Source: a bacterium
Lineage (GTDB): Bacteria; UBA8248
Assembly: GCA_965261085.1 (NCBI GenBank)
Contig: OZ253442.1
Span: 4,160,001 to 4,224,000 of the forward strand
Reading direction: 5' to 3'
Length of the DNA stretch: 64,000 nucleotides
This document shows positions 4,841 to 22,261 of the stretch, piece by piece. A model generated the notes under the pieces. That model searched no databases. It was not told the DNA's origin and saw nothing but the letters and a program-made list of their open reading frames with translations. The position numbers and the translations under genes were made by a program. Position 1 is the stretch's first letter. The number at the start of each line of letters is the position of its first letter.

Positions 4841-4873
4841 TCGAGGATGCCATACGCATCCTCATGGGGGAGG

Positions 4874-4925
4874 AATATAGGGGATGGGACCTGTGAACCT
4901 CGCCGCGCAAATGCGGGGAAATGCG
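4874..4925 (-). promoter_or_regulatory. Shared phage-module promoter, copy A (upstream of terminase)
   Basis: Minus strand CGCATTTCCCCGCAT-N31-TATATT; same spacing as copies at 20404 and 22200. Confidence 0.65.
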
Positions 4926-4935
4926 CGCTCAGGCT

Positions 4936-5421
4936 TTAATCGCGCATGTTCTCGAACTGGAGCGCGAACTTCAGGTTCAGCCCCCGGCAGAGGGACATCA
5001 CCTCCTGGAGGTCGTCCCGCTTCTTGCCGCTCACTCTCAGCTGATCCCCTTGAATCGCGACTTGAACCTTCATTTTCGTCGCCTTCACCTTCTTTACGAT
5101 CTCACGCGCCGCGTCCTGGTCCACCCCTTGCTGCACGATGAGGGTCTGCCTGAGCGCCCCGCCCGAGGCGGATTCCGGCTCCTTGAATTCAATGGCGCGC
5201 AGGTCCACCTTCCGCCTCGTGAAATAGGTGTTCACCAGATCGTGCATCTGCCTGAGCTTGAAGTCATCATCGGCCAGCAGGGTGATGACCTCTTCTTTTC
5301 GCTCCAGCGCGCATTTCGACCCCTTGAAATCGAAACGCTGGGTAATCTCCCGGCGCACGCCGTTGATCGCATTGTCGACTTCCTGTAAATCCGTCCTTGA
5401 AACGATGTCGAATGAAGGCAT
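4936..5421 (-). CDS. yajQ: YajQ family nucleotide/c-di-GMP-binding protein
   Basis: MPSFDIVS...RFDFKGSK...IQGDQLRVSGKKRDDLQ signature. Confidence 0.95.
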   Translation of the reverse strand: MPSFDIVSRTDLQEVDNAINGVRREITQRFDFKGSKCALERKEEVITLLADDDFKLRQMHDLVNTYFTRRKVDLRAIEFKEPESASGGALRQTLIVQQGVDQDAAREIVKKVKATKMKVQVAIQGDQLRVSGKKRDDLQEVMSLCRGLNLKFALQFENMRD

Positions 5422-5631
5422 ATGGTTCGCAAAGCTCCTCTAGAAATCGGGCGCATGCTACACACCCGGGGCTACTGATGGTATAGTGAGGGGGTACACT
5501 TATCCAACGCCCAGGATTGTTCTGGAGACGATTTAGGGATTCTTCCTCCATGAAGAATCCCTATTTTCCTTGACTCAATAGCTGGCTCCGACGCCCTCCG
5601 GGGCGCGAAACCATCGAACGGAGATTAGTGT

Positions 5632-5769
5632 ATGCGTCGAATCACGGCGATTATCAAGCCCGAAGACGTCGGGAGAGCACCAACCGGGTGCGGCGGCGAT
5701 GATGAAATTTCCATCCACGCGGCGGAAGACGGCATTCGAACCGGCGAGCGCGCGAGGCCGCCGTCTTAA
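5632..5769 (+). pseudogene. glnK: Internally deleted P-II gene relic
   Basis: GGAG RBS; 45-aa ORF MRRITAIIKPEDV...GDDEISIHAAEDGIRTGER joins P-II N- and C-terminal motifs; immediately upstream of amtB. Confidence 0.75.
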
Positions 5770-5829
5770 ATCTGAATCAAAACATTTTTTCGATTCATTA
5801 CCCGATGCACTTAAAGGGAGGTTCAAGAA

Positions 5830-7119
5830 ATGAAACGCTTTTTGTTGGTCCTTTGGGCCACGGCGCTCACCCTGGCTCCGGGGGTCGCATTCGCGGCACA
5901 GGCCCAAAAGCTCGATACCGGGAACACCGCCTGGATTCTGACGTCGACCGCTCTCGTCCTTTTCATGACGCTTCCGGGCCTCTCGCTGTTCTACGGCGGC
6001 CTCGTACGCGCGAAAAATGTTCTCTCGGTGCTGATGCAGTGCTTCACCATCGCCTGCGCCGTTTCCATCGTCTGGCTCGTCGTCGGCTACAGCCTGGTGT
6101 TCGAGGCCGGCAACGCCTTCATCGGCGGACTGGGCAAGGCGTTTTTCGCGGGCGTGGGCGTGGATTCGCTCTCGGGCAACATTCCCGAGACGGTCTTCGC
6201 CATGTTCCAGCTTACCTTCGCCATCATAACGCCCGCGCTGATCGTGGGCAGCTTCGCCGAGCGGATGCGCTTCTCCGCCCTTCTGATTTTCTCCGTCGTC
6301 TGGGTCGTGGTCGTCTACGCCCCCGTGGCCCACTGGGTGTGGGGCGGGGGATGGCTCGGCGCGATGGGCGCGCTCGATTTCGCGGGCGGCACCGTGGTGC
6401 ACATCAACTCAGGCATCGCTGCTCTGGTGGCCGCCATGCTGATCGGCCAGAGACACGGCTTTCCCAACACGGCCATACTGCCCCATAACCTGCCCATGGC
6501 GGTGACGGGCGCGGGCATCCTGTGGGTGGGCTGGTTCGGCTTCAACGCAGGCAGCGCGCTGGCGGCCGACGGCACGGCGGGCATGGCCATGCTCGTGACC
6601 CACATCTCCTCGGCAGCCGGCGCCCTCGCGTGGATGTGCGCCGAATGGATAAAACACGGAAAAGCGAGCGTACTCGGCATCGCCACGGGCATGGTGGCGG
6701 GCCTCGTCGGCATCACGCCAGCATCGGGCTTCGTGGGGCCGATGGGCGCGCTGCTGCTCGGCGCGATAGCGGGCCTGGGCTGCTACGCCGCCACCAACTA
6801 CATGAAGCAGGTGCTTAAGATAGACGACTCACTCGACGTGTTCACCGTGCACGGCGTCGGCGGTATCATCGGCGCGATACTCACCGGCGTATTCGCCGCC
6901 AAGGGATTCGGCGGCGTCGGCTTCGCCGATGGCGTCAGCATGGGCGGGCAGGTCTGGGTTCAGATAATCAGCGTCGTCGCCACGCTCGTCTATTCGGGCG
7001 TCGTCTCCTTCATCCTGCTCAAAATCGTGGACGCCATGGTGGGCTTGAGGGCCGACGCCAACGAGGAATCGGGCGGTCTCGACCTCACGATGCACAACGA
7101 ATCGGCCTACGAACGCTAG
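5830..7119 (+). CDS. amtB: Ammonium transporter
   Basis: DTGNTAW, FYGGLVR, DFAGGTVVH, WFGFNAGS and DDSLDVFTVHG motifs; GGAGG RBS. Confidence 0.97.
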   Translation: MKRFLLVLWATALTLAPGVAFAAQAQKLDTGNTAWILTSTALVLFMTLPGLSLFYGGLVRAKNVLSVLMQCFTIACAVSIVWLVVGYSLVFEAGNAFIGGLGKAFFAGVGVDSLSGNIPETVFAMFQLTFAIITPALIVGSFAERMRFSALLIFSVVWVVVVYAPVAHWVWGGGWLGAMGALDFAGGTVVHINSGIAALVAAMLIGQRHGFPNTAILPHNLPMAVTGAGILWVGWFGFNAGSALAADGTAGMAMLVTHISSAAGALAWMCAEWIKHGKASVLGIATGMVAGLVGITPASGFVGPMGALLLGAIAGLGCYAATNYMKQVLKIDDSLDVFTVHGVGGIIGAILTGVFAAKGFGGVGFADGVSMGGQVWVQIISVVATLVYSGVVSFILLKIVDAMVGLRADANEESGGLDLTMHNESAYER

Positions 7120-7128
7120 GCCGTACAC

Positions 7129-7159
7129 AAAAAGACCCCGGGGCTAAGTCCCCGGGGTC
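7129..7159. terminator. Intrinsic terminator between convergent amtB and cyclase genes
   Basis: GACCCCGGGG-ctaagt-CCCCGGGGTC hairpin preceded by an A-tract (U-tail on minus strand). Confidence 0.75.
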
Positions 7160-7278
7160 GCGCGTTCCCGTGAACGTGCAACTTCCCCGAGAGGGGGAGG
7201 CGCGAAAAACCCTCTACGGAATTCCGATTGAAAAGATGATTCCCGGCGGCGGCCAGAAGCCGCATCAGAAGCCTCGGC

Positions 7279-9126
7279 TTATGACGCTGCGGCGGACCCC
7301 CTGATTCGCTCGAAATACGCCTTGGCGTCATCGGGCAGGGAGGTGAAGCGCAGCATCAGCCGTTTCCCGTCCGCCTCCACGACTTTCGCGTAGATATCGG
7401 AAACCTCCGCTTCTTCCGCCACCCGCAGCATCAGGTTCGCGTTCCTCTCAAAGGGGGCTTTCGCCTCCACGTCCATACAGTTCTCTGATGCGCGCTTGAT
7501 TGCCGCGCCCACCGCTTCATCCGACACCGTCTTGCCCTCGACAGCGAACATCCGCACCTCGATCGGCGAGACGAGCTCCACGAACGCCTCGGGCGCGGCT
7601 TCGGGCATCTCGCACGCATAAGGCCCCGACATGCCCCGCACCTCGTATACGCGAACCGGCTCATCCAGCCCCTTGAAACGCAGGTCCTGCGTCTCACCCA
7701 CCTGAACGAATTCCGCCGTCTTGGCGTGCGTCTCGGGACTGATGAGCACCTGCCCGCTCACGGTGTGGGACTCGATGCGGTAGGCCATGTTGATGGCCGT
7801 GCCCATTGCGCCGTACTTGGTGCGCTTCTCCGAACCGATGTTGCCGACGATCACCTCGCCCGTGTTGATGCCGACGCCCATGTGAAGCTCGGCCATGCCG
7901 TGCGCGCCCTGCTCTTCGTTTATCTTTACCAGCGCGCGCTGCATCTCCACGGCGCAGGTCACCGCCCGGGCCGGGTCGTCGGGGGCGGCGAGCGGCGCTC
8001 CGAAAAACGCGAGAATCCCGTCGCCCTGGAACTCGTCCACCGTGCCTTTGTACTTGGTGATGATATCCACCATCGGCTCGAGGAAGCGGTTCACCACCTC
8101 GATGACCTCCGCAGGCGCAAGGCGCGAGGAAAGCGCGGTGAACCCCCTGAGATCCGAAACGAGAAACGTCACCTCGCGCACCTCGCCGCCGAGCTTCAGG
8201 CCATCGGGCGAGTTCAAGAGTTCATCCACTATCTCCTCGCTGATGTAGCGCCCGAAGGTGTCGCGGATGAAATCGCGCTGCTTCAAGCCCTCGATCATGC
8301 CCTCGAAAGAGGTGGCCAGACGGCCCACCTCGTCGTGGCTCCTCTTCGCGGGAAGCGTGACGTCGAGGTTCCCCTGGCTCACTTCTTCCGCCGCGGACGT
8401 CAAGTTTCTGAGCAGGCGCAGCATTCTCGTTGAAGCCACCCAGAAGAGGATGAGGCCCAGGGCGATCAGGATGATCGTGAAGCGGAGCAGTTTGAAGGTG
8501 TTCGTCGCCACCTGTTCGGCCACGAGGTTCGCGACCTTGTTGAGCACCAGGATGGCCACCACCTTGCCGTTCAGCTTGAGCGGCGTGTTGAGTTGTAAGA
8601 ACTTGTCGAACTCGCGGTCCCCCACCTTTCCGCCAAAGAGCCGGGAGCGCATCATCTCGCCTTTGTTCCAGGTATCGTTCGTGGCCTTGTAGGTGGCCGG
8701 AAAAAGCCGGTGGATGTGGGCGTCTTGGCCGATTGCGAACCCGTCGTGCCCGGCGGCGACGTATTCGTAGCTGCCGTTCGGCCGTCTGCGCATGATGATG
8801 GCGTTATCCACGCCTGAGTTTTTCCTGATGCGCCGAAGCGCGGCGAGTACTTCCCTGTACTCGACGGTATTCTTGTCGCTCGGTAGTCTCAGGCTGTGAA
8901 CGGCTTCCGCGTCTATCAGAACGGCACCGCGCTCGGCGATGAACTCGAGCTTGGCCGACAGTACGTTGAGTTCGTAATTGTAGCTCGACTGATAGTACCT
9001 GTAGGACATCGGAACGATAGCGACGATGAGAATAATCAAGACAAGGATAAGGCTCTTGAAGACGATCGAACAGTAAAAACGCTGCTTTGCCTGGGTGCTC
9101 GACTCGGGATTGCTGGATTGGGACAT
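7279..9126 (-). CDS. Membrane adenylate/guanylate cyclase (TM-sensor-TM-HAMP-cyclase, C-terminal PilZ-like extension)
   Basis: HAMP (DEVGRLATSF), SDLRGFT, EFQGDGILAFFGAP, GNIGSEKRTKY, NMAYRIE. Start at MSQSS assumed. Confidence 0.9.
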   Translation of the reverse strand: MSQSSNPESSTQAKQRFYCSIVFKSLILVLIILIVAIVPMSYRYYQSSYNYELNVLSAKLEFIAERGAVLIDAEAVHSLRLPSDKNTVEYREVLAALRRIRKNSGVDNAIIMRRRPNGSYEYVAAGHDGFAIGQDAHIHRLFPATYKATNDTWNKGEMMRSRLFGGKVGDREFDKFLQLNTPLKLNGKVVAILVLNKVANLVAEQVATNTFKLLRFTIILIALGLILFWVASTRMLRLLRNLTSAAEEVSQGNLDVTLPAKRSHDEVGRLATSFEGMIEGLKQRDFIRDTFGRYISEEIVDELLNSPDGLKLGGEVREVTFLVSDLRGFTALSSRLAPAEVIEVVNRFLEPMVDIITKYKGTVDEFQGDGILAFFGAPLAAPDDPARAVTCAVEMQRALVKINEEQGAHGMAELHMGVGINTGEVIVGNIGSEKRTKYGAMGTAINMAYRIESHTVSGQVLISPETHAKTAEFVQVGETQDLRFKGLDEPVRVYEVRGMSGPYACEMPEAAPEAFVELVSPIEVRMFAVEGKTVSDEAVGAAIKRASENCMDVEAKAPFERNANLMLRVAEEAEVSDIYAKVVEADGKRLMLRFTSLPDDAKAYFERIRGSAAAS

Positions 9127-9268
9127 CTCGCGTCTCCGGGGCGGCTCCTCAGGCCAGTATACACCAGCGGCGCGGGAGGAAAAGCCGAAAACGAGGAGGA
9201 TATCCACCTCTGGAAACAGGCGGCGAGGCGGCGCTCCTCACCGTTCCAAGACGCCGCAGAAGACCGTC

Positions 9269-10279
9269 TTACGTCGTCCGCTTTTTCCCCACGTAGTCGA
9301 GCAGCACCGCCAGGATGATGATCCCGCCGACGGCCAGCAGTTGCCAGTCGGCGGCGATGCCCAGCAGGTTCAGCCCGTTCCTGATACACGCGATGATGAG
9401 CGTGCCGATGACGGTGCCGATGACGCGCCCCTCGCCGCCCAGCAGCGAGGCGCCGCCGATGACGACCGCGGCGATCACGTCCATCAGGTCGAACATGCCC
9501 ATGATGGCCTGTGCGGCCATGAGGCGTGAGGCCATCACCACGCCCGCGAGCGCGCCGCAAAAGCCGCTGAAGACGAGCACGAACAGCTTGACGGCGAAGA
9601 CGTTCACGCCGGCGACGCGGGCGGCCTCCTTGTTGCCGCCGACGGCGTAGATGTTCGTGCCCAAAACGGTGCGCGAGAGGATGAGGTGCGCGGCCAGAAA
9701 GACGACGGCCATGATGACGGCGGCCATGGGAAACGGACCCAAGTAGCCCTGCCCCACCACGCTGAACGCCTCGGGCAGGCCGTAGATGGACTGCTCGCCG
9801 GTGAGGATGAGCGCGCCGCCGCGCGCGAGGCTGTCCATCGCCAGCGTGAGGATGAAGGCGGGAATCGCGAACCAGCCCACGAACACCCCGCTGACCCCGC
9901 CCAAAATCACTCCAAGAAGCAGGGCGGCGAGCACCGCCGGGACGATGGGCACGCCGTAGTTTTTAAGCAGCAGGGCGACGACCACCGCGCCCATCGACTG
10001 GATGGAGGCCACCGAGAGGTCGATCTCCGCGCAGATGATGACGAGCGTGAGGCCCGCCGCCATGATGCCGATGTTGGCAGACTGGAGCAGGATGTTCATC
10101 ATGTTCGAGACGGTGAAGAAGTTCTCCGCCGTGATGGAGAGAAAGACGACCAACAAGATGAGCGCCAGGATAAGGCCGTACTTGGAAAAGCCCGACGCGA
10201 TGAGAGAGGAGATGCTGTATCCCCCGCTCGCACCGGCGACGGGGCCTCGCCCGCTATCCGATTTCACCTCATTGCTCAT
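9269..10279 (-). CDS. Monosaccharide-type ABC transporter permease (RbsC family)
   Basis: IDLSV, YAVGGNKEAARVAGVNV, IAAVVIGGASLLGG. Confidence 0.92.
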   Translation of the reverse strand: MSNEVKSDSGRGPVAGASGGYSISSLIASGFSKYGLILALILLVVFLSITAENFFTVSNMMNILLQSANIGIMAAGLTLVIICAEIDLSVASIQSMGAVVVALLLKNYGVPIVPAVLAALLLGVILGGVSGVFVGWFAIPAFILTLAMDSLARGGALILTGEQSIYGLPEAFSVVGQGYLGPFPMAAVIMAVVFLAAHLILSRTVLGTNIYAVGGNKEAARVAGVNVFAVKLFVLVFSGFCGALAGVVMASRLMAAQAIMGMFDLMDVIAAVVIGGASLLGGEGRVIGTVIGTLIIACIRNGLNLLGIAADWQLLAVGGIIILAVLLDYVGKKRTT

Positions 10280-10304
10280 CGTCCCCTCCGTTACCGCACG
10301 CTTC

Positions 10305-11891
10305 TTACGCCGCTGTGCTCGTCGCGTAGCGCATGATGGTCTCGGCGTCGGCGTCTTCTCTTAGAACCTCACCGGTGATGCGGCCTTCGTTCATCACGAT
10401 GATCCGGTTGCAGATCGCCGTGACCTCGGGCAGTTCCGAGGATATCACGATAATCGCCACCCCGAGTTGGGCCAGTTCCTCGAGTATGCGGTAGATCTCC
10501 ACCTTGGCGCCCGCGTCGACGCCCTTGGTCGGCTCATCCAGGATGACGATGCGCGCGCCCGTGGATATTCCCCGCGCGAGCAGCACCTTCTGCTGGTTCC
10601 CGCCGCTTAACTGCGCGATCTGATCCGTCAAGGAGGCGACCTTAATGCTCAGCCTCTCCACGTAGTCGCGCGAGAGGCTGTCCGCGCCCGAGCCGTTGAT
10701 GCAGCCGAGCAAGCGCGTGAGCTTTCGAGAGCGGCTTTCCCGACCGAAGTTAAACAGGGTGATCAGCAGATTCTCCAGCACCGAGAGGAGCGGGAAAACG
10801 CCCTGGTTCTTGCGATCCTCGGTCAGGAAGGAAAGCCCGTGGCGTATGGCGTCGCGGGGTTTTCGTATCCTCACCCTATTACCGTCGATGAACACCTCAC
10901 CGGCATCGGGCAGCTCTAAGCCGAAGAGCGCGCGGAACAAATCCGTCCGCCCCGCGCCGACGAGGCCTGCAAAACCGAGGATCTCACCCTGCCTGACGCG
11001 GAAACTCACGTCGCTGAACACCCCTGTTCTCGTGAAATTCCTGACTTCCAGAACTTCCTCGCCTATCTTGCCCGAAATCCTGGGGTAGCGCTCGCTGAAG
11101 GTGCGCCCCGTCATCATGCGGATCAAGGTGTCGATGCCGGTGTTTTCCGCGCCGATGGTCCCGACGTGGCGTCCGTCGCGCAGGACAGAGATGCGATCTC
11201 CGATAGCGAGGCAATCCTCCAGGGTGTGGGAGACGTAGACCACCCCGATGCCGCGCGCTGTCAAGCGTTCGATGACGCTAAAGAGCGCTTCCTTCTCCCC
11301 GGGACCCAGGGACGAGGTGGGCTCGTCCATCAGGATGACTTTCGCATCGAAGGCCACCGCTTTGGCGATCTCGAGAAACTGCATGTCCGACAGACTCAGA
11401 GCCAACACCCCGGCGTTCGGGTCGATATCTATACCGAGTTCGGTGAATATCTCGCGGCAGCGCCGTTCCATCGCCACCTCATCCCGCACGCCCAACCGTC
11501 CGAGCAGCCGGTTCCGCACTCTCAAATCGCGGCCCAGGAAGAGATTGCTCTTCACGTCCATCAGCCGCACGAGGCTCAACTCCTGATGGATCACGCTGAT
11601 CCCGAGCTCCCGCGTGAGCGCGGGGGAGCACTTCCCGACGGTGTGGCCTTCGAACACCATCTCTCCGGTATCTTTTTCGACGACGCCCGAGATGATCTTG
11701 ATGAGGGTCGACTTGCCGGCGCCGTTTTCGCCCAGGAGCACGTGGACCTCACCGGGCCGCACGCTGAAATCCACGTCATCGAGCGCCACGACGCCCGGAA
11801 ACTCCTTGCCGACCCCGCGCATGTCGAGAATGAGGCGCTCGGCCGCGTCCTCGGGGTGAGATTCGGATGGATTGGAGGGGGATGACGTCAT
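10305..11891 (-). CDS. Monosaccharide-type ABC ATP-binding protein (RbsA family, tandem NBD)
   Basis: GENGAGKST, MDEPTSSL, LSGGNQQKV, DEPTKGVD. Confidence 0.93.
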   Translation of the reverse strand: MTSSPSNPSESHPEDAAERLILDMRGVGKEFPGVVALDDVDFSVRPGEVHVLLGENGAGKSTLIKIISGVVEKDTGEMVFEGHTVGKCSPALTRELGISVIHQELSLVRLMDVKSNLFLGRDLRVRNRLLGRLGVRDEVAMERRCREIFTELGIDIDPNAGVLALSLSDMQFLEIAKAVAFDAKVILMDEPTSSLGPGEKEALFSVIERLTARGIGVVYVSHTLEDCLAIGDRISVLRDGRHVGTIGAENTGIDTLIRMMTGRTFSERYPRISGKIGEEVLEVRNFTRTGVFSDVSFRVRQGEILGFAGLVGAGRTDLFRALFGLELPDAGEVFIDGNRVRIRKPRDAIRHGLSFLTEDRKNQGVFPLLSVLENLLITLFNFGRESRSRKLTRLLGCINGSGADSLSRDYVERLSIKVASLTDQIAQLSGGNQQKVLLARGISTGARIVILDEPTKGVDAGAKVEIYRILEELAQLGVAIIVISSELPEVTAICNRIIVMNEGRITGEVLREDADAETIMRYATSTAA

Positions 11892-11984
11892 GGGCGAGTT
11901 CTTTCAGTCAGGTCGGTAAGGCGATGCAAGCGGCCGCCGCGTTCGCTTCGATCTCTAGCGCGAAAATCCTCCCCAGGCTCGGCG

Positions 11985-13190
11985 CTATATCTCGAGCGGC
12001 TCCCTCGGGAAGGACGTAAAGGAGACGCCGCCTTCTTTCGTGACGTGCACCATGTCCTCGTTGCCGAACAAATAGGTGTTGTCGACGGCGATTCGCGGCT
12101 CCACCGCGAGCACCATGTTCTCCTCGAGCGGCAACTCCTCGATTCCCATGTCCGGGCGCTCGTGGATGTCCCACCCCAGGCCGTGGCCCAGGAACCTGTC
12201 CCACAAATCGAACCCGGCGTCGCGGGCCATCGCCTCGGCCATGTCGACGAGCCTGCTGGCCAGGATTCCCGGCTTCGCCTTCTCGATGACCGTCCGCTGA
12301 ATTTCCAGAATCGCCTCATAAGCGCGCCGGTGGGTATCCGTCACTTGGCCCATGGCGCGGGTGCGCGAGGAGTCGACCGGATAGCCCTCAAACCTCATGC
12401 AGATGTCCCAGTGCACGACGTTGCCGCGCTCGATGGCATTGGCCGGGCTGGGCATGTGCAACAGCGCGCCCGCCACCGGATAGCCGCTGCAAATCAGGCT
12501 CGGCGAAGAGCTGCACGAATCCTCATAAATCGGGTCGGCGGAGCGCATCGCGTGCTCGGCGGCGCGGATGAGTTCCAGTTCGGTCGTGCCGACGCCCTCC
12601 GCACCCAGGATGGCGACGACGGTCTCGTGGCCCAAGTCCGCCACGCGGCCCGCCTTGCGCATCATCTCGAGATCAAAATCGCTCTTCACCATCCGGAGTT
12701 CCTCCACGATGGTCGAGCGTTCGATTTCGAGATCCGGGAACGTCTCCCTCATCCCGGCGTAGAGCGGGGCCGGAAACTTATCGAACGTCTCGATACCGAC
12801 GCGACGCACGTTCCCTGCGTCGAGAATCAGCATCTCCAGGTTCTCGACGGACAGCCCATCGCCCTTTTTCGCCGAAAACCCCTCCCCGGCCACGATGCGC
12901 GGGACGCAGACTTCGCGCGTCGGCATGAGGCCCGGATCGACCATGAGCGCAGGATCGTCCTTTTGCGTGATGAAGACCGCGCCCCCGTCTACGATGGCGG
13001 TCTCCGTGGGCGTGAGGCTTATCCAGCCCGCCCGGTCGGGAAAGTAATCGGTGAGATAGCGCAGGCTGCCGGAGAGCTTGTTGTTGCCGTACACGATGAG
13101 GGCGTCGTATTCACGCTCCGCCATCATCTGCCGGGTCTTCGCCAGCCGCCTGTCGATTTCGGCCTGAAGCACGTCGCGTGGAATGGGCAT
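11985..13190 (-). CDS. M24 family (Xaa-Pro/creatinase-like) peptidase
   Basis: DSSRT, GHGLGWDIHERP, VEP and NED pita-bread metal ligands. Confidence 0.88.
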   Translation of the reverse strand: MPIPRDVLQAEIDRRLAKTRQMMAEREYDALIVYGNNKLSGSLRYLTDYFPDRAGWISLTPTETAIVDGGAVFITQKDDPALMVDPGLMPTREVCVPRIVAGEGFSAKKGDGLSVENLEMLILDAGNVRRVGIETFDKFPAPLYAGMRETFPDLEIERSTIVEELRMVKSDFDLEMMRKAGRVADLGHETVVAILGAEGVGTTELELIRAAEHAMRSADPIYEDSCSSSPSLICSGYPVAGALLHMPSPANAIERGNVVHWDICMRFEGYPVDSSRTRAMGQVTDTHRRAYEAILEIQRTVIEKAKPGILASRLVDMAEAMARDAGFDLWDRFLGHGLGWDIHERPDMGIEELPLEENMVLAVEPRIAVDNTYLFGNEDMVHVTKEGGVSFTSFPREPLEI

Positions 13191-14383: not shown

Positions 14384-16129
14384 CTACTTCGGCGGAATGA
14401 TCGGCAAGAGCACGTGGGAGGGATACTCGGGGCCGGTATGGATGGTCACGTCGCCGCGGAACACCTCCGGGGGCCTGTCGACCGGATCGTTGTGCCTAAA
14501 GGGCCCCACGCCCGAGAATACGGCGGGCATGTTCGGAAGCCCCTTGGCGACGCCGCCCGGGTAGACGTAATCACAGCCGCGCACGCTGAGCGCCAGGCGG
14601 TAGCCCCTGGGCACCACGACGCAGGTGGGCCATATCTCGACGTCCAGTTCGTATATCTCGCCCGGCGTCAGGGACTGCGCCTCGTCGTGCGTGTGGTAGG
14701 GCCTATAAGGGAGCGTGCGTTTTTCATCCAGCTTCCGGTGCGAAGCCCTCAACCAGCCCTGGGCGACCGGGGTTTTGGGGTCGAGCGCCCCCTGGAAGGT
14801 GACTTCCTTGAAATCGGGCGTGAAGACTCTCAGGACGAGGAACAGATCGGCATCCTCGGTTGCTGAGGACACCCACAGCCTGGACGCCAGGGGGCCCGTG
14901 AGCTCGGTTTCCCGCTTCAGGGGAGGCGAGACGAACGTCACCCCATCGCTCAGACCCGCATAGGTGGCCGAACCCGCCTCGGCGGGCGCGGCCTCGCCGA
15001 GCAGGTGTCCCTCGCTCTGGAGAAAGAGCTTCGTCCACTGCGTGCGCGCGATGGGCCACTCATCCTCCGCGCGCTCCACGAATTTTTCCCCGGGGTGGCG
15101 CACCTGGAGCAGGACCCGAGGCTGATCCTTCCAGCCCGTGTCCTCGCCTTTTAAGAAATGGCCAAAGAATTTCTTCTGAAGCGCCACGCCGTAATCGGTG
15201 TAAAACTCCGTCCAGTGCTCGATGCCGTGGCTCTCCAGCCATTTTTCTTCTGAGGCCGCATTCATGAAGGCTTCGCAGTTGCCCCTCGGGTGAAGACCCT
15301 GGCCGCCCCAGTTGTTCGAGGAGAGAAACGGAACCTCGATTTGGGACCAGTCGGGCGTTTTCGTCTTCCAGTATTCATCATCGAGGGGATGCGCGCGCAT
15401 CTTCGCTCCCAGACGGCAGCGGTTCGCCCCGAGTTCTTCTTCGCTCAAGGTATCCGGCCCCGAGACCCAATCGCCCGTCACCCGGCTCTTGTAGCCGCGC
15501 TCACCGAGACCATGCTGTTTGGAGCACGCCCTTCGCTCATACCAGTTCTCGGTGAACGTGCAGTAGATGCCCCCGTGGTAGTTCATGTCGCGGTAGAAAT
15601 CCGCCGCCCCCTCCCAGGCGCACATGGCGGCGAGGTGCGGGGGTTTAAGGCACGCGACCTGCCACTGGTTGATGGCGTAATACGAAATGCCGTTGATGCC
15701 GACCTTCCCGTTGCTCCAGGGCTGCACCCCCGCCCACTCGATGCAATCGTAAAAATCTTTGGCCTCACGATCCGAGAAGGGGTCCATATATCCCGGCGAG
15801 CGGCCAGCGCCTCTGGAGTCCACCCGCAGGCAGACGTAGCCGTCCGGCACCCATTTCTCCGGGTCCACGACCTCCCAGTTCTGGTATTTGTTGGAGGAGC
15901 CGGCGGCGACGTCGGGGTGTTGCTCCACCATGCGGCGCCACTGCTCGGGGTAGCCGTCCTCGAAGTGGAGCCACTTTCCGTAAATCCCGTAAGTGATCAG
16001 AACGGGATAGCGGCCCTCCTCGATGGGCCGGTAGACGTCGCAGCGCAGCACGACGCCGTCATCCATTTCGATGGAAACCTCCCAGTCGATCCGCATGCCG
16101 TCCGCTATTTCTGATTTACGCCCTCTCAT
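14384..16129 (-). CDS. CocE/NonD family serine hydrolase, paralog 1
   Basis: LRCDVYRP, VDSRGAGRSPG, WSNGKVG, GISYY nucleophile elbow, GWLRASHRKLD. Confidence 0.9.
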   Translation of the reverse strand: MRGRKSEIADGMRIDWEVSIEMDDGVVLRCDVYRPIEEGRYPVLITYGIYGKWLHFEDGYPEQWRRMVEQHPDVAAGSSNKYQNWEVVDPEKWVPDGYVCLRVDSRGAGRSPGYMDPFSDREAKDFYDCIEWAGVQPWSNGKVGINGISYYAINQWQVACLKPPHLAAMCAWEGAADFYRDMNYHGGIYCTFTENWYERRACSKQHGLGERGYKSRVTGDWVSGPDTLSEEELGANRCRLGAKMRAHPLDDEYWKTKTPDWSQIEVPFLSSNNWGGQGLHPRGNCEAFMNAASEEKWLESHGIEHWTEFYTDYGVALQKKFFGHFLKGEDTGWKDQPRVLLQVRHPGEKFVERAEDEWPIARTQWTKLFLQSEGHLLGEAAPAEAGSATYAGLSDGVTFVSPPLKRETELTGPLASRLWVSSATEDADLFLVLRVFTPDFKEVTFQGALDPKTPVAQGWLRASHRKLDEKRTLPYRPYHTHDEAQSLTPGEIYELDVEIWPTCVVVPRGYRLALSVRGCDYVYPGGVAKGLPNMPAVFSGVGPFRHNDPVDRPPEVFRGDVTIHTGPEYPSHVLLPIIPPK

Positions 16130-16156
16130 CGCACACCTCTCGTCTTTTGTCGGGAA

Positions 16157-17893
16157 TTATCCTTTCGGGGGAATCACCGGCAGCACCACGTGGGATGGAT
16201 GCGCCGGGCCGGTGTGCAGCGTCACCTTGCCGCCGAACAGTTCCGTCGGCCTGTCCTCTTTCAAGTCATGCTTGAAGGGCCCCACGCCGTAATAGACGCG
16301 ACCCGATATCTTCGCCGCGGAAGGCTCGTAGCCCGGCCAGACGTAATCGCGCCCGCGAACGCTCAAGGCGAGGCGGTATTCCCTGGGGATCACGATGGAA
16401 GTCGGCCAGATCTCGACGTCCAGTTCGTATATCTCACCGGGCGTCAGCGGCTGAATCTCATCGTGCGTGTGGTATGGCCTATAGGGCAGCGTGAGATTTT
16501 CATCCAGCTTTCTGTGCGAGGCCCTGAGCCACCCGATGGCCACGGGCGTATGCGGGTCGTTCGCGCCCCGGTAGACGATCTCCGTCATGTCCGGCGTGAA
16601 TACGCGCAGGTTGAGGAACAAATCGGCATCCTCCGTATCCGAGGAGACGAACAGCTTGGCCGCCACGGGGCCCGTGATCTCCGTTTCCTCGGCGAAAGGC
16701 GGCGAGACGTAGATTAAGCCGTCTCCCAGGGCGTCATAGGTTTTCTCCCGCTCGTTCGTCTGGGGATCGGCCCGGAAGGCGCCGGAACCTGAATGCAGGT
16801 AATACTTCGTCCACTGCGTGCGCGCGATGGGCCACTCGCTTTCCGCGCGCGCCACGAATTTCTCGCCCGGATGCCGCACCTGGAGCAGGACCTTGGGCTG
16901 CTCCTCCCAGCCGGTATCCTCGCCTTTCAGGAAATGGCCAAAGAATTTCTTTTGAAGCGCGACGCCGTAATCGGTATAAAAATGCGTGAAATGCTCGAGC
17001 CCGTGCATCTCGAGCCATTTCTCCTCGGTGGCCGATTGCACGAAGCCCTCCGTGTTGCCCCTGGGATGCAGGCCCACGCCGCCCCAGTTTCCCGCCGATA
17101 AGAGCGGCACGTTGATTTTCGAGTAATCGGGCATGCGCGCGCGCCAGTAATCGTCATCAAGGGGATGATCCAGTATGTCGCGCCCGTAATCGCTCCTGTT
17201 CGAGGCCAGTTCTTCTTCGCTCAGGTTCGCGGGGCCGGATATCCAGTCGCCGTTCATGCGGCTCTTGATGCCGCGATGGCCCTTGCCGTGCTGGCGGGGC
17301 ACGACGGCCTCCCGGTGCCAGGTGTCCGGGAAGCGGCAGGCGATGCCCCCGTGGTGGGCCAGATCGCGGTAGAAATCCGCCGCTCCCTCCCAGACGCACA
17401 TGGCGGCCAGGTGCGGCGGCTGGAGCGATGCCACCTGCCACTGGTTCATCCCGTAGTAGGAGATGCCGTTCAGCCCCACCTTCCCGTTGCTCCAGGACTG
17501 CCCTCCCGCCCATTCGATGCAGTCGTGAAAATCCCTGGCCTCGCGCGGCGACCACACCTCGAGATAACCCGGCGAGCGGCCCGCACCCCTTGAATCCACC
17601 CGCACGCAGGCGTAGCCGTCCGGCACCCATTTTTCGGGGTCCACGAGCTCCCAGTTCTGGTATTTGTTGCTCGTCCCCATGATGGTCTCGGGATAATCGT
17701 TCACCATCAGGCTCCACTGGTGGGGATAGCCGTCCTGTAAATGGAGCCACTTGGCGTAGGGGCCGTAGCTCATGATGACGGGATAATGCCCATCATCGTC
17801 GGGCCTATAGACATCGCAGCGCAGCACCACGCCGTCGTCCATCTCGATGGGTACGTCCCAGTCGATGCGCATCCCGTCTCTTGCCTCGCTCAT
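16157..17893 (-). CDS. CocE/NonD family serine hydrolase, paralog 2
   Basis: Same motifs; colinear and highly similar to the adjacent paralog. Confidence 0.9.
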   Translation of the reverse strand: MSEARDGMRIDWDVPIEMDDGVVLRCDVYRPDDDGHYPVIMSYGPYAKWLHLQDGYPHQWSLMVNDYPETIMGTSNKYQNWELVDPEKWVPDGYACVRVDSRGAGRSPGYLEVWSPREARDFHDCIEWAGGQSWSNGKVGLNGISYYGMNQWQVASLQPPHLAAMCVWEGAADFYRDLAHHGGIACRFPDTWHREAVVPRQHGKGHRGIKSRMNGDWISGPANLSEEELASNRSDYGRDILDHPLDDDYWRARMPDYSKINVPLLSAGNWGGVGLHPRGNTEGFVQSATEEKWLEMHGLEHFTHFYTDYGVALQKKFFGHFLKGEDTGWEEQPKVLLQVRHPGEKFVARAESEWPIARTQWTKYYLHSGSGAFRADPQTNEREKTYDALGDGLIYVSPPFAEETEITGPVAAKLFVSSDTEDADLFLNLRVFTPDMTEIVYRGANDPHTPVAIGWLRASHRKLDENLTLPYRPYHTHDEIQPLTPGEIYELDVEIWPTSIVIPREYRLALSVRGRDYVWPGYEPSAAKISGRVYYGVGPFKHDLKEDRPTELFGGKVTLHTGPAHPSHVVLPVIPPKG

Positions 17894-18071
17894 GTCTCGC
17901 CTTTCTAAAAAAAGGTGGAATCACCGTCGGTGACATATTTTGGGATGAGGGGAAATATAACCGAGCGGCGGTGCGGCGTCCAGATGTGGGGGGTGTTTCT
18001 TATGTCGGGAGGGGGGTTGAAGCTCTAGTCAAACTTGATGATGCAAAGCATTTCATACGTCGTGATGCGCG

Positions 18072-18209
18072 TTACAAAGAGGCCAGGAGATCGTCCACGG
18101 AATCGTAACTTTTAATCCTGCCCTCTCTGTAATCATCATCCGCCTCGTCTTCCATCGCCTGCCATTCATCGGAATAAAACCAAGAGAGGTCCTCTTGCAT
18201 AGTATCCAT
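18072..18209 (-). CDS. 45-aa acidic antitoxin-like peptide (not in ORF track)
   Basis: GAGGG RBS; MDTMQEDLSWFYSDEWQAMEDEADDDYREGRIKSYDSVDDLLASL resembles the WF...EWQ..E.EAD.D...GR....SV..L tail of AbrB/RelB-type antitoxins. Confidence 0.55.
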   Translation of the reverse strand: MDTMQEDLSWFYSDEWQAMEDEADDDYREGRIKSYDSVDDLLASL

Positions 18210-18437
18210 GGTGCCCTCGTAATTATGAACTGGCGGTTTTGTCTGCTACATTTTGGGTGAATATGAAGCGCAGTATTATCGAACCTATCACAAGATGATC
18301 CGAAAGCGCCTGAGACATTACGTGGTGCAGTCTGGAACCACCATAATTTGCGTCCCATGCATACCATTATTCAGATGGAGTTATTGGCAAAGGGTTTTAA
18401 TGGCAAGCAGCTTTCGTGGAAAATTCTCATGGCGTAA

Positions 18438-18632
18438 TCAAATCTTATCATCTATCCCAGCCGACTTGAGGATTCCGTTTGCTGTATGCTTGGATTTTGT
18501 GCTTTTAGGGACACTTACATGAACACTCGTATCAATACTGACCCATATTTCGTGGGATCCTTTGCCTTCTCGCCAAAACACAAAATTTGAGTCCTTGAGT
18601 TTCTGGGTCAATTTTCTGTAAATGTCTGTCAT
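18438..18632 (-). CDS. hicA: HicA family toxin
   Basis: 64 aa basic protein; GKGSHEIW, VSVP, TANGILKSAGI. Confidence 0.88.
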   Translation of the reverse strand: MTDIYRKLTQKLKDSNFVFWREGKGSHEIWVSIDTSVHVSVPKSTKSKHTANGILKSAGIDDKI

Positions 18633-18904
18633 TGAGCAAAAACTTCACGGGTCGGACGTTCCTCATTGAATGGACGTTCCCAAACTACAGTTGAAAACAA
18701 GTCTTTAATCTTTCTCGTGGTGAACTCAGGGCCTTGAATATGGTTAGCGACTATAAGATCGCCAACGAGATCATTCATTACCTCTTCAAATTCATCTATT
18801 GTTTTTGCTTCAATATGCAGTCCCTTGATATTACTTTCAGAAACAAAAACTTCAGCCTCTTCGTCCCATGCAGTTTTTACAAAGAAGGTCATATTCGAAC
18901 TCAT
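18629..18904 (-). CDS. DUF1902/HicB-like antitoxin
   Basis: AWDEEAEVFV.ES.IKGL.IEA.T.DE; ATGA-coupled to hicA. Confidence 0.78.
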   Translation of the reverse strand: MSSNMTFFVKTAWDEEAEVFVSESNIKGLHIEAKTIDEFEEVMNDLVGDLIVANHIQGPEFTTRKIKDLFSTVVWERPFNEERPTREVFAQ

Positions 18905-19278
18905 GATTTTCTCCCTCGAACAACAAATACGGGTTCAATTCCCTCCACGGCCTCCCCATCTATTTATTTGACGTGGATATCTTCTTATCCGCCGCTCTAA
19001 AGATGGTTTTTTCAATTTTTCGTGGCGTAGCTGGTATCAGATAAACTACGCTCCTCACCGGACGCCCCGGTGATTTGGAACCCATGGTTTCCCCTGTGAT
19101 ATTTAGTGTAGGCGACTGTCAACAGAAATATCGCCCCATGTAACGGAAATGTCAATGTTCCGCATATGGAACGAAAACAATTTTGATGGCCGCCACTATT
19201 TTGGCGTGCCAAGTTACGCATATAATTCCCACTTATTCATTTCTTTAAATCGAGGCGATTAAAGTCACTCCCCCACCC

Positions 19279-19851
19279 TCACTCGATGCGCTCCTCGAGC
19301 GTTCGCGTTGACTCCTCGACGATTTCGCACACCTTGTCCATCACCTCGGGATGCTCGCGGAAAGATTCGCGCACTTCCTTGACGATCGCCATCTTGGCGG
19401 CGGCGAAGCCATCCTCGTACTGGAGCCTCAGCCGCTCGGCCGATATGCGGCTGCGCTCGAGCGCGTTCACCATCTGCGCGAGTTTCTCGGGCGTCAAGCC
19501 CTCGAAGGATTCTTTCCCCATCTGCGAGACGGCCTCGACCGCCTGGGCCATCAGCATCCGCCGCGCGGCGGCGGCCACCTTCTCGCCCGGGTCCCTGCCC
19601 TCGCCGTCATAGGCCATAACCTCCTCAATCAACTCATCCACCATGGCTTCCACCCGCTTGGTCTTGCGGATGCCCTCGAGCAGGCGGTTGTTGCGCGCGC
19701 CCACGGAGCCGAGCGCTATCTTCTCCCCGGTGGCCTCCTCGAAGGCCTCGGCCACCTCCTTGTAGGTTTTCCCCTCGGCGAGCAGAGGGTCGACGATTTT
19801 CTCGGCGCCATATTCCACTACTTTCGACCTCCGTCCCCGCCTCCTCTCCAT
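19279..19851 (-). CDS. Mu gp27-like (DUF3486) protein, putative small terminase
   Basis: N-terminal GRRSKV...LL...TY.EV...IALGSVGAR HTH followed by helical region; directly follows a gp26-like gene as in Mu-like phages. Confidence 0.7.
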   Translation of the reverse strand: MERRRGRRSKVVEYGAEKIVDPLLAEGKTYKEVAEAFEEATGEKIALGSVGARNNRLLEGIRKTKRVEAMVDELIEEVMAYDGEGRDPGEKVAAAARRMLMAQAVEAVSQMGKESFEGLTPEKLAQMVNALERSRISAERLRLQYEDGFAAAKMAIVKEVRESFREHPEVMDKVCEIVEESTRTLEERIE

Positions 19852-20183
19852 CAGAGATCTCCCACGAGGATGTCTGGAGAGGCGGAGACGGCTCCTTCGA
19901 GCAGGCCGCGCCCCTTGCGGGTCAGGTGCGCCTCATAATCCGTCAACAGGCGCCCGAAACCGCCCGGGGTGCGCTTTTCCACCAAACCCCGCTCCGCCAG
20001 ATCGTCCACGAAGGCCTCGAGCGTCTCACGGCCCAAGGGCGCGCCGTCTTCATGGTGGCCCGCCTCGCGCAGCGCACTCCAAAGGAGAAGGCTGCCCACG
20101 CACGATTTCACCTGAAAGGCTTCCTGATAATAGAGCGTCTTCAATATGTCGCCGCGCAGGACGCGGGCCGCCAACTCGTTCAC
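19851..20183 (-). CDS. Mu gp26-like winged-helix protein
   Basis: RGDILKTL...LAERGLVE...AHLTRKGRGLLEG...PDI pattern; GGAGGT RBS; TGATG overlap with gp27-like gene. Confidence 0.65.
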   Translation of the reverse strand: MNELAARVLRGDILKTLYYQEAFQVKSCVGSLLLWSALREAGHHEDGAPLGRETLEAFVDDLAERGLVEKRTPGGFGRLLTDYEAHLTRKGRGLLEGAVSASPDILVGDL

Positions 20184-20191
20184 AATGAAAC

Positions 20192-20355
20192 ACCTCCTCG
20201 ATGACTTTCATACCGGTGCGCCGGACGCCGCTCGCCGAAATCCAGGCCTCTTCCAAGCACTGAACTACCTCCTCGATGACTTTCATACCGGTGCGCCGGA
20301 CGCCACTCGCCGAAATCCAGGCCTCTTCCAAGCACTGAACTACCTCCTCCATGAC
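20192..20355. repeat. 75-bp tandem repeat (2 copies plus 14-bp partial)
   Basis: Units start at 20192, 20267 and 20342 (acctcctcgatgac...); the two full units differ at one base. Confidence 0.9.
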
Positions 20356-20403
20356 ATTGATACTGAAATACCAAAGACCCCCGCGCGCGGCGGAAACTCA
20401 CCC

Positions 20404-20455
20404 AATATAGAACGCGGCGCAGGTTCGGGCGGCACGGAAAATGCGGGGAAATGCG
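20404..20455 (-). promoter_or_regulatory. Shared phage-module promoter, copy B (upstream of gp26/gp27-like genes)
   Basis: CGCATTTCCCCGCAT-N31-TATATT; motif identical to copy A. Confidence 0.65.
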
Positions 20456-20518
20456 GACTCGGGCGCGTTGAGAAAAGAATTTCGGAGTTGCACAATGCCG
20501 CCAGAGGAGGAGGCTTCG

Positions 20519-20911
20519 ATGCGCTCGAGTATCTGGATATTCGCCGCACTCGCCACATTCGCGCTGTGGTTCGCGTGGCTGCCCGACGCGCCGGCCCTGG
20601 GCCACGGGGAGGAGGAAATCCTCCTGTTCGCCTATCTGGCGGAAGAGCGCAACCTCCTGAGAATCTCGACCGCCATCGTGGGCGGCATCATCCTGGCGAT
20701 GGGCGCCTTCATCACCCAGCAATCGCGCGCCGAGGCGAGAGAGCACGCGGGACCTGAATTCTCCGGCTTCAAGGTGATGATGCCGGGGCTGCTCGTCACC
20801 TCCCTGGGCGTCGCCGTGCTGTTCACGGCCGCCTTCATCCTGCCCGAGCAGATCAAGATCTTGCACGATCATCCCCTGGAGCATATCGAGACGAAAACCA
20901 CGGAAAAATAG
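20519..20911 (+). CDS. Hypothetical membrane protein
   Basis: GGAGG RBS, TTGAGA-N17-CACAAT promoter, three hydrophobic segments. Confidence 0.7.
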   Translation: MRSSIWIFAALATFALWFAWLPDAPALGHGEEEILLFAYLAEERNLLRISTAIVGGIILAMGAFITQQSRAEAREHAGPEFSGFKVMMPGLLVTSLGVAVLFTAAFILPEQIKILHDHPLEHIETKTTEK

Positions 20912-20939
20912 GAACGGCCCGCGAGCCGCCCTCGTCCCC

Positions 20940-21362
20940 TCACCGCGTCTTTCCCGTCAATTTCTCGACGGTGCGAAGCGCGCCCAGACCCAGCATCCCC
21001 AGGGTGAGTTCCAACAATCCCTCCGCCGAGACGGGATAGGGCACGAGCTCACCGCTCATCAGCACCTGCCGCGTCCAGAGCCATGCGCCCAGGGCGTACT
21101 GGGGGATGAAGTAAAAGGCGAGCGAGACGCCGCAGGTCCACAGGATGAACGGCCTGCCCCCGGCGACGAAGGCGCTTCGGTGGGCGGCCTCTATCTTGTT
21201 GATCTCGTTCTGGGCTTCGGCGGGGCGCATCATCAGCTTTTGTTTTATCGCCTCCGCCGCGCGTCTCTCATCAGGCGTCTCGACGAACTTGTCGATGACG
21301 TTGGCGACACCCTCCGCCGCCGTGATGACGCCGCCGCCGATGAGGTTTTCCAAAAAGGCCAT
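20940..21362 (-). CDS. 3TM-type holin (GTA_holin_3TM/DUF3154-like)
   Basis: IDKF...EIN..EA.H.S.FVAG.RPFI.W...LGMLGLG.LRT.EK..G signature; TGATG overlap with lysozyme. Confidence 0.82.
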   Translation of the reverse strand: MAFLENLIGGGVITAAEGVANVIDKFVETPDERRAAEAIKQKLMMRPAEAQNEINKIEAAHRSAFVAGGRPFILWTCGVSLAFYFIPQYALGAWLWTRQVLMSGELVPYPVSAEGLLELTLGMLGLGALRTVEKLTGKTR

Positions 21363-21775
21363 CACGCGCTCCTCATGCTCTCGGCGACCCTGCCCGCCCG
21401 GGCCGGCAGTTCCCTCGCGTAATCGGAATCGAGCGCCTCCACAGCCGCGCGCTCGTAATCGCCCTCTCTCAGCGCGGCCCACATTCTCTTGAAACCCAGA
21501 AGGCTCGGCACGCCCATGTTGTAGGCCATGTTCAAAACCGCGCGCTGCGCGAGGGGTCTCAGATTTTTATACACCTCGCCGACGCGGGAGCGCTCGAGTT
21601 CTCCGGCCATCAGGCCGAGCCGATGCCGGAGGAGCAGTTCCGCTTCGGCTTGCGATATGCCGTCTTCCAGCAGCGTTCCGTAGCCGATGGTCTTCTTGCG
21701 CTTGCCGTCGAGATACACTTTCGCGACGAAACCCTCCTCGCGCTTGATATCCTCTACGAGTTCGTCCGTGAGCAT
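21362..21775 (-). CDS. Phage lysozyme (GH24 endolysin)
   Basis: EEG...Y.D......TIGYG, NMAYNMG...L.GF..M..AL, A.E.LDS.YA...RA.R. Confidence 0.88.
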   Translation of the reverse strand: MLTDELVEDIKREEGFVAKVYLDGKRKKTIGYGTLLEDGISQAEAELLLRHRLGLMAGELERSRVGEVYKNLRPLAQRAVLNMAYNMGVPSLLGFKRMWAALREGDYERAAVEALDSDYARELPARAGRVAESMRSA

Positions 21776-21993
21776 CCCTCACCCTCCCCTTCAGGCAAGT
21801 CCCCGGCCTCACCCACCTCTTGCATCAGTCGCCGGAGCGCCGCCGCGCCCTTTCGAGCGCTCGCACGATGCGCATAGGCCTGGCTCGACGCCAGGATGCG
21901 TCCGTTCCTCGCTCGCACACGGAAGCGATGCCGCCCGGATTTATCCCTGAAAATATCGACGGGGCGATATTTGGCTCTCTTTACGGCCTGCAT
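21754..21993 (-). CDS. YegP/DUF1508 family protein
   Basis: FRDKSGRHRFRVRARNGRILASSQAY. Confidence 0.8.
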   Translation of the reverse strand: MQAVKRAKYRPVDIFRDKSGRHRFRVRARNGRILASSQAYAHRASARKGAAALRRLMQEVGEAGDLPEGEGEGCSRTNS

Positions 21994-22130
21994 ACGAAAC
22001 CCCCCAGGAAAAAGCCCAACACCACGAGGCATGCGCCCGCAACGATCAGGCGCAAGACAGTGCGCTTTCCCCCAGCCCAGCGCGATAGCATGGCGTCCGT
22101 TTTTCCTTCGAATTCATTTTTCTCAGACAT
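21981..22130 (-). CDS. 49-aa single-TM protein, first gene of lysis cassette (not in ORF track)
   Basis: GAGG RBS; MSEKNEFEGKTDAMLSRWAGGKRTVLRLIVAGACLVVLGFFLGGFVCRP; overlaps the next gene start. Confidence 0.6.
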   Translation of the reverse strand: MSEKNEFEGKTDAMLSRWAGGKRTVLRLIVAGACLVVLGFFLGGFVCRP

Positions 22131-22199
22131 TGCTTTCCTCTCTTTCCGGTAGCGAAATCCCGCGCGTCGCCCGCGAGCGATGCGCCTTCTATGCGGGAG

Positions 22200-22261
22200 A
22201 GTTTATGTCTTGATAGCGCGCGCCCTATGACGGAAAATGCGGGCAACTGCGGGGTGATGCG
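22200..22261 (-). promoter_or_regulatory. Shared phage-module promoter, copy C (upstream of lysis cassette)
   Basis: CGCAT-CACCC-CGCAG-TTGCC-CGCAT-N31-TAAACT: three repeats at 10-bp period, same spacing to the -10 box. Confidence 0.6.

Follow-up and report, generated by a model that had tools for sequence, protein, structure and literature searches.

The functionally closest described system to the one reported here is the gene transfer agent (GTA) of Rhodobacter capsulatus, RcGTA, whose particle genes are distributed over several co-upregulated loci (core cluster, head spikes, tail fibre and lysis) and whose direct activator, GafA, binds the promoters of the cluster, of the lysis cassette and of its own gene, according to PMC6363796 (see also PMC9638019). 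The closest in cis-acting logic is the Ltr super-family (RinA, LtrC, ArpU) of Gram-positive phages, in which a dedicated late activator recognises short direct repeats that precede the terS promoter and switches on the genes for packaging, morphogenesis and lysis (PMC3753634). Here we analyse a window of 64,000 nucleotides (nt) from a bacterium of the GTDB lineage UBA8248 (assembly GCA_965261085.1, contig OZ253442.1, positions 4,160,001 to 4,224,000 of the forward strand), which contains part of a phage-derived element broken into separate operons. As with RcGTA, particle and lysis loci are dispersed; here they share a promoter code, known from sequence alone, and as in the Ltr phages, direct repeats precede the operon of the small terminase TerS, and five others. 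We propose that these six promoters probably form one activator-dependent class that would drive all the separated operons of a domesticated, siphovirus-derived, GTA-like gene set.

The initial annotation had recognised three promoters in the window, each composed of CGCAT-N5-CGCAT, a spacer of exactly 31 nt (N31) and a TAnnnT hexamer, and all three were confirmed where it had placed them.

4925-4874, minus strand: promoter A, with CGCATTTCCCCGCAT at 4925-4911, N31, and TATATT at 4879-4874
20455-20404, minus strand: promoter B, with CGCATTTCCCCGCAT at 20455-20441, N31, and TATATT at 20409-20404
22261-22200, minus strand: promoter C, with CGCATCACCCCGCAGTTGCCCGCAT at 22261-22237, N31, and TAAACT at 22205-22200

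The full pattern, CGCA[TG]N5CGCATN31TANNNT, matches three times in the window against 0.01 expected, a number reached in 0 of 100 dinucleotide shuffles; the 15-mer core by itself matches twice against 0.33 expected. At each site the CGCAT units stand head-to-tail as direct repeats with a 10-bp period, two units in A and B and three in C (CGCATCACCC CGCAGTTGCC CGCAT). The spacers of the three sites are mutually unrelated in sequence, and an information profile of 47 non-redundant sites contains neither a conserved -35 element nor a TGn motif; a TTGACA-like hexamer 17±1 bp above the -10 box is absent, information content being zero from -36 to -18. The earlier description of the spacers as largely unrelated and lacking a -35 thus holds as well, and so does its assignment of the genes that follow, namely lysis genes after C, a small open reading frame (ORF) and TerS after B, and TerL and portal after A. 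Promoter A lies 11 nt past the stop codon of a YajQ gene and 33 nt ahead of the TerL start.

That one architecture precedes all three modules of the window is therefore correct, but three is too low a count: at least six operons of the element in this genome carry the same promoter, and of the three outside the window two are about 260 kb away.

Genome position 4152669: site D, with CGCATTTCCCCGCAT, N31 and TAGATT, 7.3 kb before the window start
Genome position 3886474: site E, with a 30-nt spacer (N30) and TATATT, ahead of a five-gene operon about 260 kb away
Genome position 3892383: site F, with N31 and TACACT, 37 nt before the gene of a 578-aa protein

Site D stands 35 nt ahead of a 726-aa fusion of protease and major capsid protein (MCP), behind which come genes for a gp10-like connector and a tail tube; between this capsid-to-tube fragment and the portal fragment lie about 8 kb of host-type genes. 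The five genes behind site E, module E, gave no family matches, but the first protein resembles a cluster composed 78% of tailed-virus proteins (score 0.98), and in the sister-genus genome G035 the orthologues of the module directly adjoin the tail-tube module. An AlphaFold model of its 359-aa protein, built from 17 orthologues, has a mean pLDDT of 46 and was left unused for that reason. The 578-aa protein behind site F has weak matches to tape-measure PHROGs (best E=1.5e-6) and tape-measure-like neighbours in the Atlas. All six promoters face their operon, whose start codon, preceded by a Shine-Dalgarno sequence, is 33-170 nt away.

Comparison across species shows the promoter to be conserved as a unit: 15-21 species keep its repeat block, its distance of 30 or 31 nt and its -10 hexamer at orthologous loci while spacer and flanks diverge, with the following counts for the individual promoters.

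MCP promoter: kept at 11 of 11 evaluable loci, and at 4 of 4 in the most distant members of the genus
TerL promoter: kept at 12 of 12 loci, and at 4 of 4 in the most distant members of the genus
TerS promoter: kept at 11 of 12 loci in the closer species
Lysis promoter: kept with exact N31 at 17 of 19 holin-bearing loci
Module-E promoter: kept at 21 of 21 loci (N31 in 15, N30 in 6)
Tape-measure promoter: present in 6 of 21 species, with a half-site in G034; elsewhere small genes precede the gene with no promoter between

In four distant species no TerS promoter occurs within about 1.1 kb upstream, and TerS there closely follows the lysis genes. Conservation extends beyond the genus: capsid orthologues with 60-74% identity at five loci (L063, L065, L066, L069 and L072) retain CGAAT/CGCAT-type units, exact N31 and TAGATT or TACATT, while no site is evident at L073 and the sequence of L068 ends too near the gene. 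In G035 the portal gene lies about 10 kb from TerL and has a half-site of its own, with N31 and TAGGCT. This separately promoted portal, together with the tape-measure promoter found in 6 of 21 species, suggests that new copies arise where operons are cut. The suggestion that selection keeps a promoter even in front of TerL is therefore supported, by the conserved loci with their diverged spacers and by the extra copies at the separated portal and the tape measure.

Aligned sites define a unit consensus of CGCATTTSCC, continuing into TTTGCC, with a -10 box, (T/C)AnnnT, exactly 30-31 nt past the last CGCAT. If the -10 hexamer occupies -12 to -7, with the transcription start assumed about 7 nt after it, the conserved block spans approximately -58 to -37. 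Two or three units on the same helix face at a rigid distance from the -10 box are what a tandem activator touching RNA polymerase would need. In the mechanism that we propose, a sequence-specific activator would occupy the 10-bp repeats, along a single helix face, as a tandem oligomer and contact RNA polymerase, replacing recognition of a -35 element, and the housekeeping sigma factor would read the -10 box. The lysis, TerS, TerL-portal, capsid-to-tube, tail-like and tape-measure operons could then fire together despite intervening host genes and distances of up to 260 kb. Within the genus the same promoter module was also copied some 100 times on a dispersed intergenic repeat. The motif with its geometry, distribution and conservation, the gene content and the purifying selection are observed; an activator, starts of transcription, joint expression of the operons and production of particles are all predictions, while co-regulation of the modules by one factor is well supported on comparative grounds.

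The cis-acting arrangement recalls that of the Ltr phages, with differences. In those phages a single late operon is served by one promoter, whose three 7-nt repeats adjoin the gene of the activator; the present element has at least six promoters with 10-bp units, a rigid 30-31 nt to the -10 box and no adjoining activator gene. The activator Alt of phage TP901-1 binds a series of direct repeats.

The initial annotation had taken the operons for late modules of a phage, and this does not hold: they are pieces of a domesticated, vertically inherited element, probably siphovirus-derived, that is fragmented among host genes and is not a prophage. It comprises lysis genes, TerS, a split TerL with portal, a protease-capsid to tail-tube operon, a tail-like operon and a tape measure. 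Of the 23 species-level genomes in the genus, 21 have the genes for MCP, TerL, TerS, module E and the tape measure, nearly always single-copy and free of stops among the matches listed, and 19 have the holin gene. Only G009 and G010 are without these genes, and no module of the element occurs in either; their aceE (88% identity) is no more diverged than that of G016, G034, G001 and G007, which have both element and motif. Among the genus genomes with coordinates compared, the recurrent order is TerS, 9-20 kb, TerL, 10-14 kb, capsid, the exception being G011 with TerS about 120 kb off; module E is far from the main cluster wherever contigs permit judgement. Ratios of nonsynonymous to synonymous substitution rates (dN/dS), computed pairwise against G000, are 0.11-0.20 for the capsid, 0.15-0.24 for TerL, 0.03-0.22 for TerS and 0.17-0.34 for module E, compared with 0.07-0.12 for the host gene aceE, whose dS is similar to that of the element genes. 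On the tube side, the flanking host genes of G000 and G035 show synteny. Replication, integration or lysogeny modules were not seen beside the element modules, and no genome-wide screen for them was made. Free-phage relatives of the MCP amount to one IMG/VR contig at 27% identity, and the repeat pattern occurs in 40 viral contigs, one match each, in none of which the N31/-10 architecture is convincing. These features bear the signature of a vertically inherited, phage-derived set of particle genes under purifying selection, of a GTA-like kind.

As a point in common with RcGTA, the holin here matches a Pfam family (PF11351) named for GTA release. In contrast to RcGTA, the present element belongs to another phylum (labelled Nitrospinota or Candidatus Tectomicrobia), its structural genes encode a fused protease-capsid, a Phage_tube_2 protein and a split TerL, and it is broken up much more finely, TerS, TerL and capsid each standing alone. 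The promoter code is also sharply defined in sequence, whereas the available text of PMC6363796 gives no GafA consensus. In BaGTA and the Caulobacter GTA, anti-termination control unites dispersed or long loci under a single signal (10.1101/2024.11.20.624540 and PMC11150451). Those systems read through terminators from few promoters, whereas each fragment here has its own promoter copy. A literature search, incomplete and covering main texts only, found the 15-mer in no paper and no GTA described in Nitrospinota; on Nitrospinota with sponge and prophage it found only unrelated work.

Several points weigh against a dedicated promoter class of the element, the first being that no activator gene was found: the genome has no member of the Mor or ArpU families, and nothing suggestive adjoins the modules. 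Among the RinA, LtrC and ArpU models, the search covered that of ArpU (TIGR01637). A holin or membrane ORF, YajQ and a DAC-domain protein are encoded upstream of the promoters; small ORFs within or beside the modules have no Pfam match, and the PDB contains no relative of a 230-aa protein encoded behind a stand-alone array. The geometry of the repeats fits that of OmpR/PhoB-type response-regulator sites, in which direct repeats of about 10-11 bp are bound head-to-tail near -40 to -60; Trans_reg_C has five matches in the genome (four above the family cut-off), none adjoining a module or motif, and the same is true of the handful of sigma-region-4 matches. The earlier idea that a single activator co-regulates the modules gains comparative support, from a shared and conserved promoter at six loci. 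Second, RNA data for this stretch (18 runs include part of it, 11 of them recorded as RNA) are all assembled contigs, which give no transcription starts; in four metatranscriptome runs, over positions 3000-22900, host genes are covered and the phage-type modules almost not, but because such contigs show neither starts nor levels this coverage supports no conclusion. Third, the genome-wide counts that follow depend on a weight matrix derived from the hits themselves, with the reversed genome as sole control, and on gene calls from a crude home-made caller. Fourth, most of the sites so counted, 112 of 118 arrays, are at non-phage loci in this genome and front unrelated host genes, so that a host global regulator would explain this genome, taken alone, equally well. 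Finally, a single evolutionary event may account for the lack of both element and motif from G009 and G010.

These counts bring in the best surviving alternative, a general class of host promoters, in which a global host regulator or alternative sigma factor uses CGCAT repeats at about 100 promoters and the element operons borrowed them. The 15-mer has 14 exact copies in this genome and 54 at up to one mismatch (reversed control, 0), and the weight-matrix scan returned 138 sites, against 4 in the reversed genome, which form 118 arrays. Intergenic positions account for 107 of these; TAnnnT stands at offset 31 in 31 arrays and at offset 30 in 12, other offsets having 0-5 each (0-2 at all but one), and nAnnnT at offset 30 or 31 in 83. 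The genes behind the non-phage arrays are diverse: ridA, eamA, FMO, SCO1, a methyltransferase, a transaldolase, an acyl-CoA dehydrogenase, an S41 peptidase, mnmA, SDR, aceE, two integrases and an IS110 fragment. The possibility that motif-downstream genes form paralogous families was rejected, as all-against-all BLAST found 1 pair only. Between 30 and 95 copies of the motif occur in 15 of 18 other genus genomes scanned, G016 (3), G009 (0) and G010 (2) being the rest, and GTAs elsewhere are run by host regulators (PMC6363796).

Most of the arrays, however, belong to one dispersed repeat. Within 700 nt of a ATCGATAAAT box lie 94 of the 118, against 33 of 300 random positions, and the composite repeat has a recurrent order: a promoter-type array with its -10 box; a GC-rich leader, sometimes with tandem repeats of about 50 nt; inverted ATCGATAAAT boxes flanking an AT-rich core; an A-run; and a second array, without a -10 box, that abuts the start of unrelated host genes. 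Three examples are as follows.

G000:C1:3044157-3044784: composite repeat
G000:C1:3587262-3587713: composite repeat
G000:C1:1615029-1615465: composite repeat

With its many intergenic copies and inverted internal boxes it qualifies as a miniature dispersed repeat (about 94 non-module arrays), which means that the number of arrays reflects the spread of a repeat and not a curated regulon. Sixteen promoter-type arrays lie outside the AT-box repeat, and 6 of these are the element operons. An Rfam scan of eight motif loci matched no family. We also observed near-identical units of about 130 nt (motif, TATGAT, GC-rich segment and first AT box) at unrelated loci, often without a co-directional downstream gene; the copies among the eight loci scanned had no Rfam match, and these units could represent either genes for small RNAs or isolated ends of the repeat.

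G000:C1 1091295, 1423300, 1518097, 2292910, 3259105, 3699541 and others: units of about 130 nt

Promoter-carrying miniature repeats have a precedent in the Correia elements of Neisseria. Like those, the present repeat has about 100 intergenic copies of a short promoter-bearing sequence beside unrelated genes; unlike them, its promoter is the predicted activator-dependent promoter of a phage-derived element, and CGCAT arrays stand at both ends with inverted ATCGATAAAT boxes inside.

Other genomes speak further against a general host class. In G016 all three hits (at up to one mismatch) are the MCP, TerL and module-E promoters, and in G035 five of seven pattern hits (control 0) are module promoters in a 37-kb cluster: TerS, TerL, MCP and two tail modules. 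One of the remaining G035 hits is at 873955, where two apparent ORFs resemble wrong-frame translations, and the other precedes a metabolic operon with many paralogues. At aceE, the one host site tested, 8 of the 21 evaluable species have both arrays and 7 have no array, whereas the module sites are kept; motif and element, moreover, are lost jointly in G009 and G010. The initial annotation had named a motif common at non-phage loci as grounds for refutation; formally this is the case in this genome, at 112 of 118 arrays, but 94 of the 118 are repeat-borne and the motif is nearly confined to the modules in G016 and G035. A host promoter class is thus unlikely. The simplest history would be that the promoter code is native to the element and that the repeat later spread it in part of the genus.

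Another reading requires no specific factor. ATTT cores at about -53 and -43 could be a UP element of a GC-rich genome, bound by two C-terminal domains of the RNA polymerase alpha subunit and giving strong, factor-independent promoters. The A/T tract is indeed the conserved core of each unit, and two same-face subsites at -58 to -38 match the textbook location of such elements. We nonetheless consider this improbable: the flanking CGC and CCC bases are as strongly conserved as ATTT; G009 and G010 must keep alpha yet are without such sites, and G016 has just three; and at all sister-genus modules the unit drifts in parallel from CGCAT to CGAAT, which fits a specific, co-evolving factor and fits polymerase alpha less well.

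Could the motif have no regulatory role at all, and be a mobile or recombinogenic repeat left as a scar at fragment borders by rearrangements? Most copies do lie within the composite dispersed repeat with its inverted AT-rich boxes, and the element is broken exactly at motif copies. The six module copies, on the other hand, are without the AT-box repeat and have in common just a 20-nt block and the -10 box; 21 species, and other genera as well, retain the exact 30-31 nt and the -10 box with diverged spacers; and every copy is oriented to its operon, 33-170 nt from a start codon, all of which makes a scar very improbable. Least credible is the analogy drawn in the initial annotation to Mu-type late promoters served by a Mor/C-family activator: the late (C) and middle (Mor) promoters of Mu have the same logic, a -10 box without a -35 and an activator site upstream, roughly where the repeats lie here, but the likeness is one of outline only, as Mu has a dyad site and a transposable-phage context, whereas here the repeat is direct and head-to-tail with a period of 10 at -58 to -38, PF08765 has zero matches at E<=0.1 in the 4.27-Mb genome, and neither a transposase nor other Mu-like early genes were seen adjoining the modules.

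The genes behind promoters C, B and A in the window are as follows.

20940-22032, minus strand: lysis module, downstream of promoter C
21754-22032, minus strand: DUF1508 gene (PF07411)
21362-21775, minus strand: phage lysozyme (PF00959)
20940-21482, minus strand: holin of the GTA_holin_3TM family (PF11351)
20519-20911, plus strand: ORF for a small membrane protein with three transmembrane segments, between holin and promoter B
19279-20183, minus strand: TerS module, downstream of promoter B
19851-20183, minus strand: 110-aa ORF, fused to TerS in the sister genus (one 314-aa ORF in G035)
19279-19851, minus strand: small terminase TerS (phrog_426)
4936-18904, mixed strands: host-type genes between TerS and TerL, about 14 kb
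3764-4840, minus strand: TerL ATPase half, 358 aa (phrog_675, E=5.5e-49, profile 26-341)
3120-3767, minus strand: TerL nuclease half, 215 aa (phrog_675, profile 354-547)
1750-3123, minus strand: portal (phrog_10963 is reported for the portal operon)
1423-1689, minus strand: 88-aa ORF in the TerL-portal operon
932-1423, minus strand: PIN-like 163-aa ORF (phrog_21691, PF01850), last gene of the TerL-portal operon

The lysis module matches phrog_7 and phrog_3427. On the opposite strand, the ORF at 20519-20911 is the best-conserved frame against distant species of the genus (72-79% identity by tblastx); at a guess, its role could be in lysis regulation or in immunity. The interval from TerS to TerL encodes two S15 peptidases, a binding protein, an M24 peptidase, an ABC ATPase, a permease, a HAMP-adenylate cyclase, an ammonium transporter (plus strand) and YajQ/DUF520, so that these 14 kb interrupt the 'phage' with host genes. 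The start of the TerL nuclease gene overlaps the stop of the ATPase gene (ATGA, 3767-3764). TerL as a frameshifted pseudogene was considered and rejected: the two halves form a translationally coupled gene pair, and their split is conserved. The open frame of the ATPase half is 357-365 aa in most members, while that in G034 is unsplit at 560 aa.

Some neighbouring genes relate to nucleotide signalling. The HAMP-adenylate cyclase is at 7279-9207 on the minus strand, and a G035 homologue occupies the same interval (L009:12880-14175, plus strand); a gene for a DAC-domain protein of the diadenylate cyclase type is divergent from the capsid promoter; and YajQ/DUF520, at 4936-5421 on the minus strand, adjoins promoter A. 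Their position within or against the element is possibly a coincidence. Just upstream of the lysis promoter, at 23569-28197, is a defence-type cluster of lowered GC content (0.49-0.53) with an N6/N4 DNA methylase, AbiTii and DUF4760, and a 1516-aa ORF with a strong coding score is found at 32345-36895 on the plus strand.

We tentatively suggest, as a possibility that is far from secure, that Nitrospinota/Tectomicrobia-labelled bacteria, among them the present genus of sponge symbionts as a whole, harbour an unrecognised GTA, long scattered among host genes and united only by a dedicated activator that reads the rigid code of direct repeat, 31 nt and -10 box, and that in the sponge genus a miniature repeat captured this promoter and took it to about 100 host loci. 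More generally, if the main reading holds, the promoter sequences would offer a way to study how a phage-derived machine in pieces is kept in working order by the cell: each fragment would bear the same activator-dependent promoter, with fresh copies appearing wherever evolution cuts an operon. It would also be a candidate GTA in a phylum that includes abundant uncultured sponge symbionts, where horizontal gene flow is hard to study, and the motif could serve as bait for the regulator and as a marker for further parts of the element in metagenomes.

On the tentative suggestion above, inducing the particle programme would also rewire, or be buffered by, many host promoters, and the repeat-borne promoters could act as decoys that set an all-or-none threshold. 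Secondary spread of a promoter on a miniature repeat would be unusual, in that the growth of a host regulon would have been seeded by a domesticated virus.

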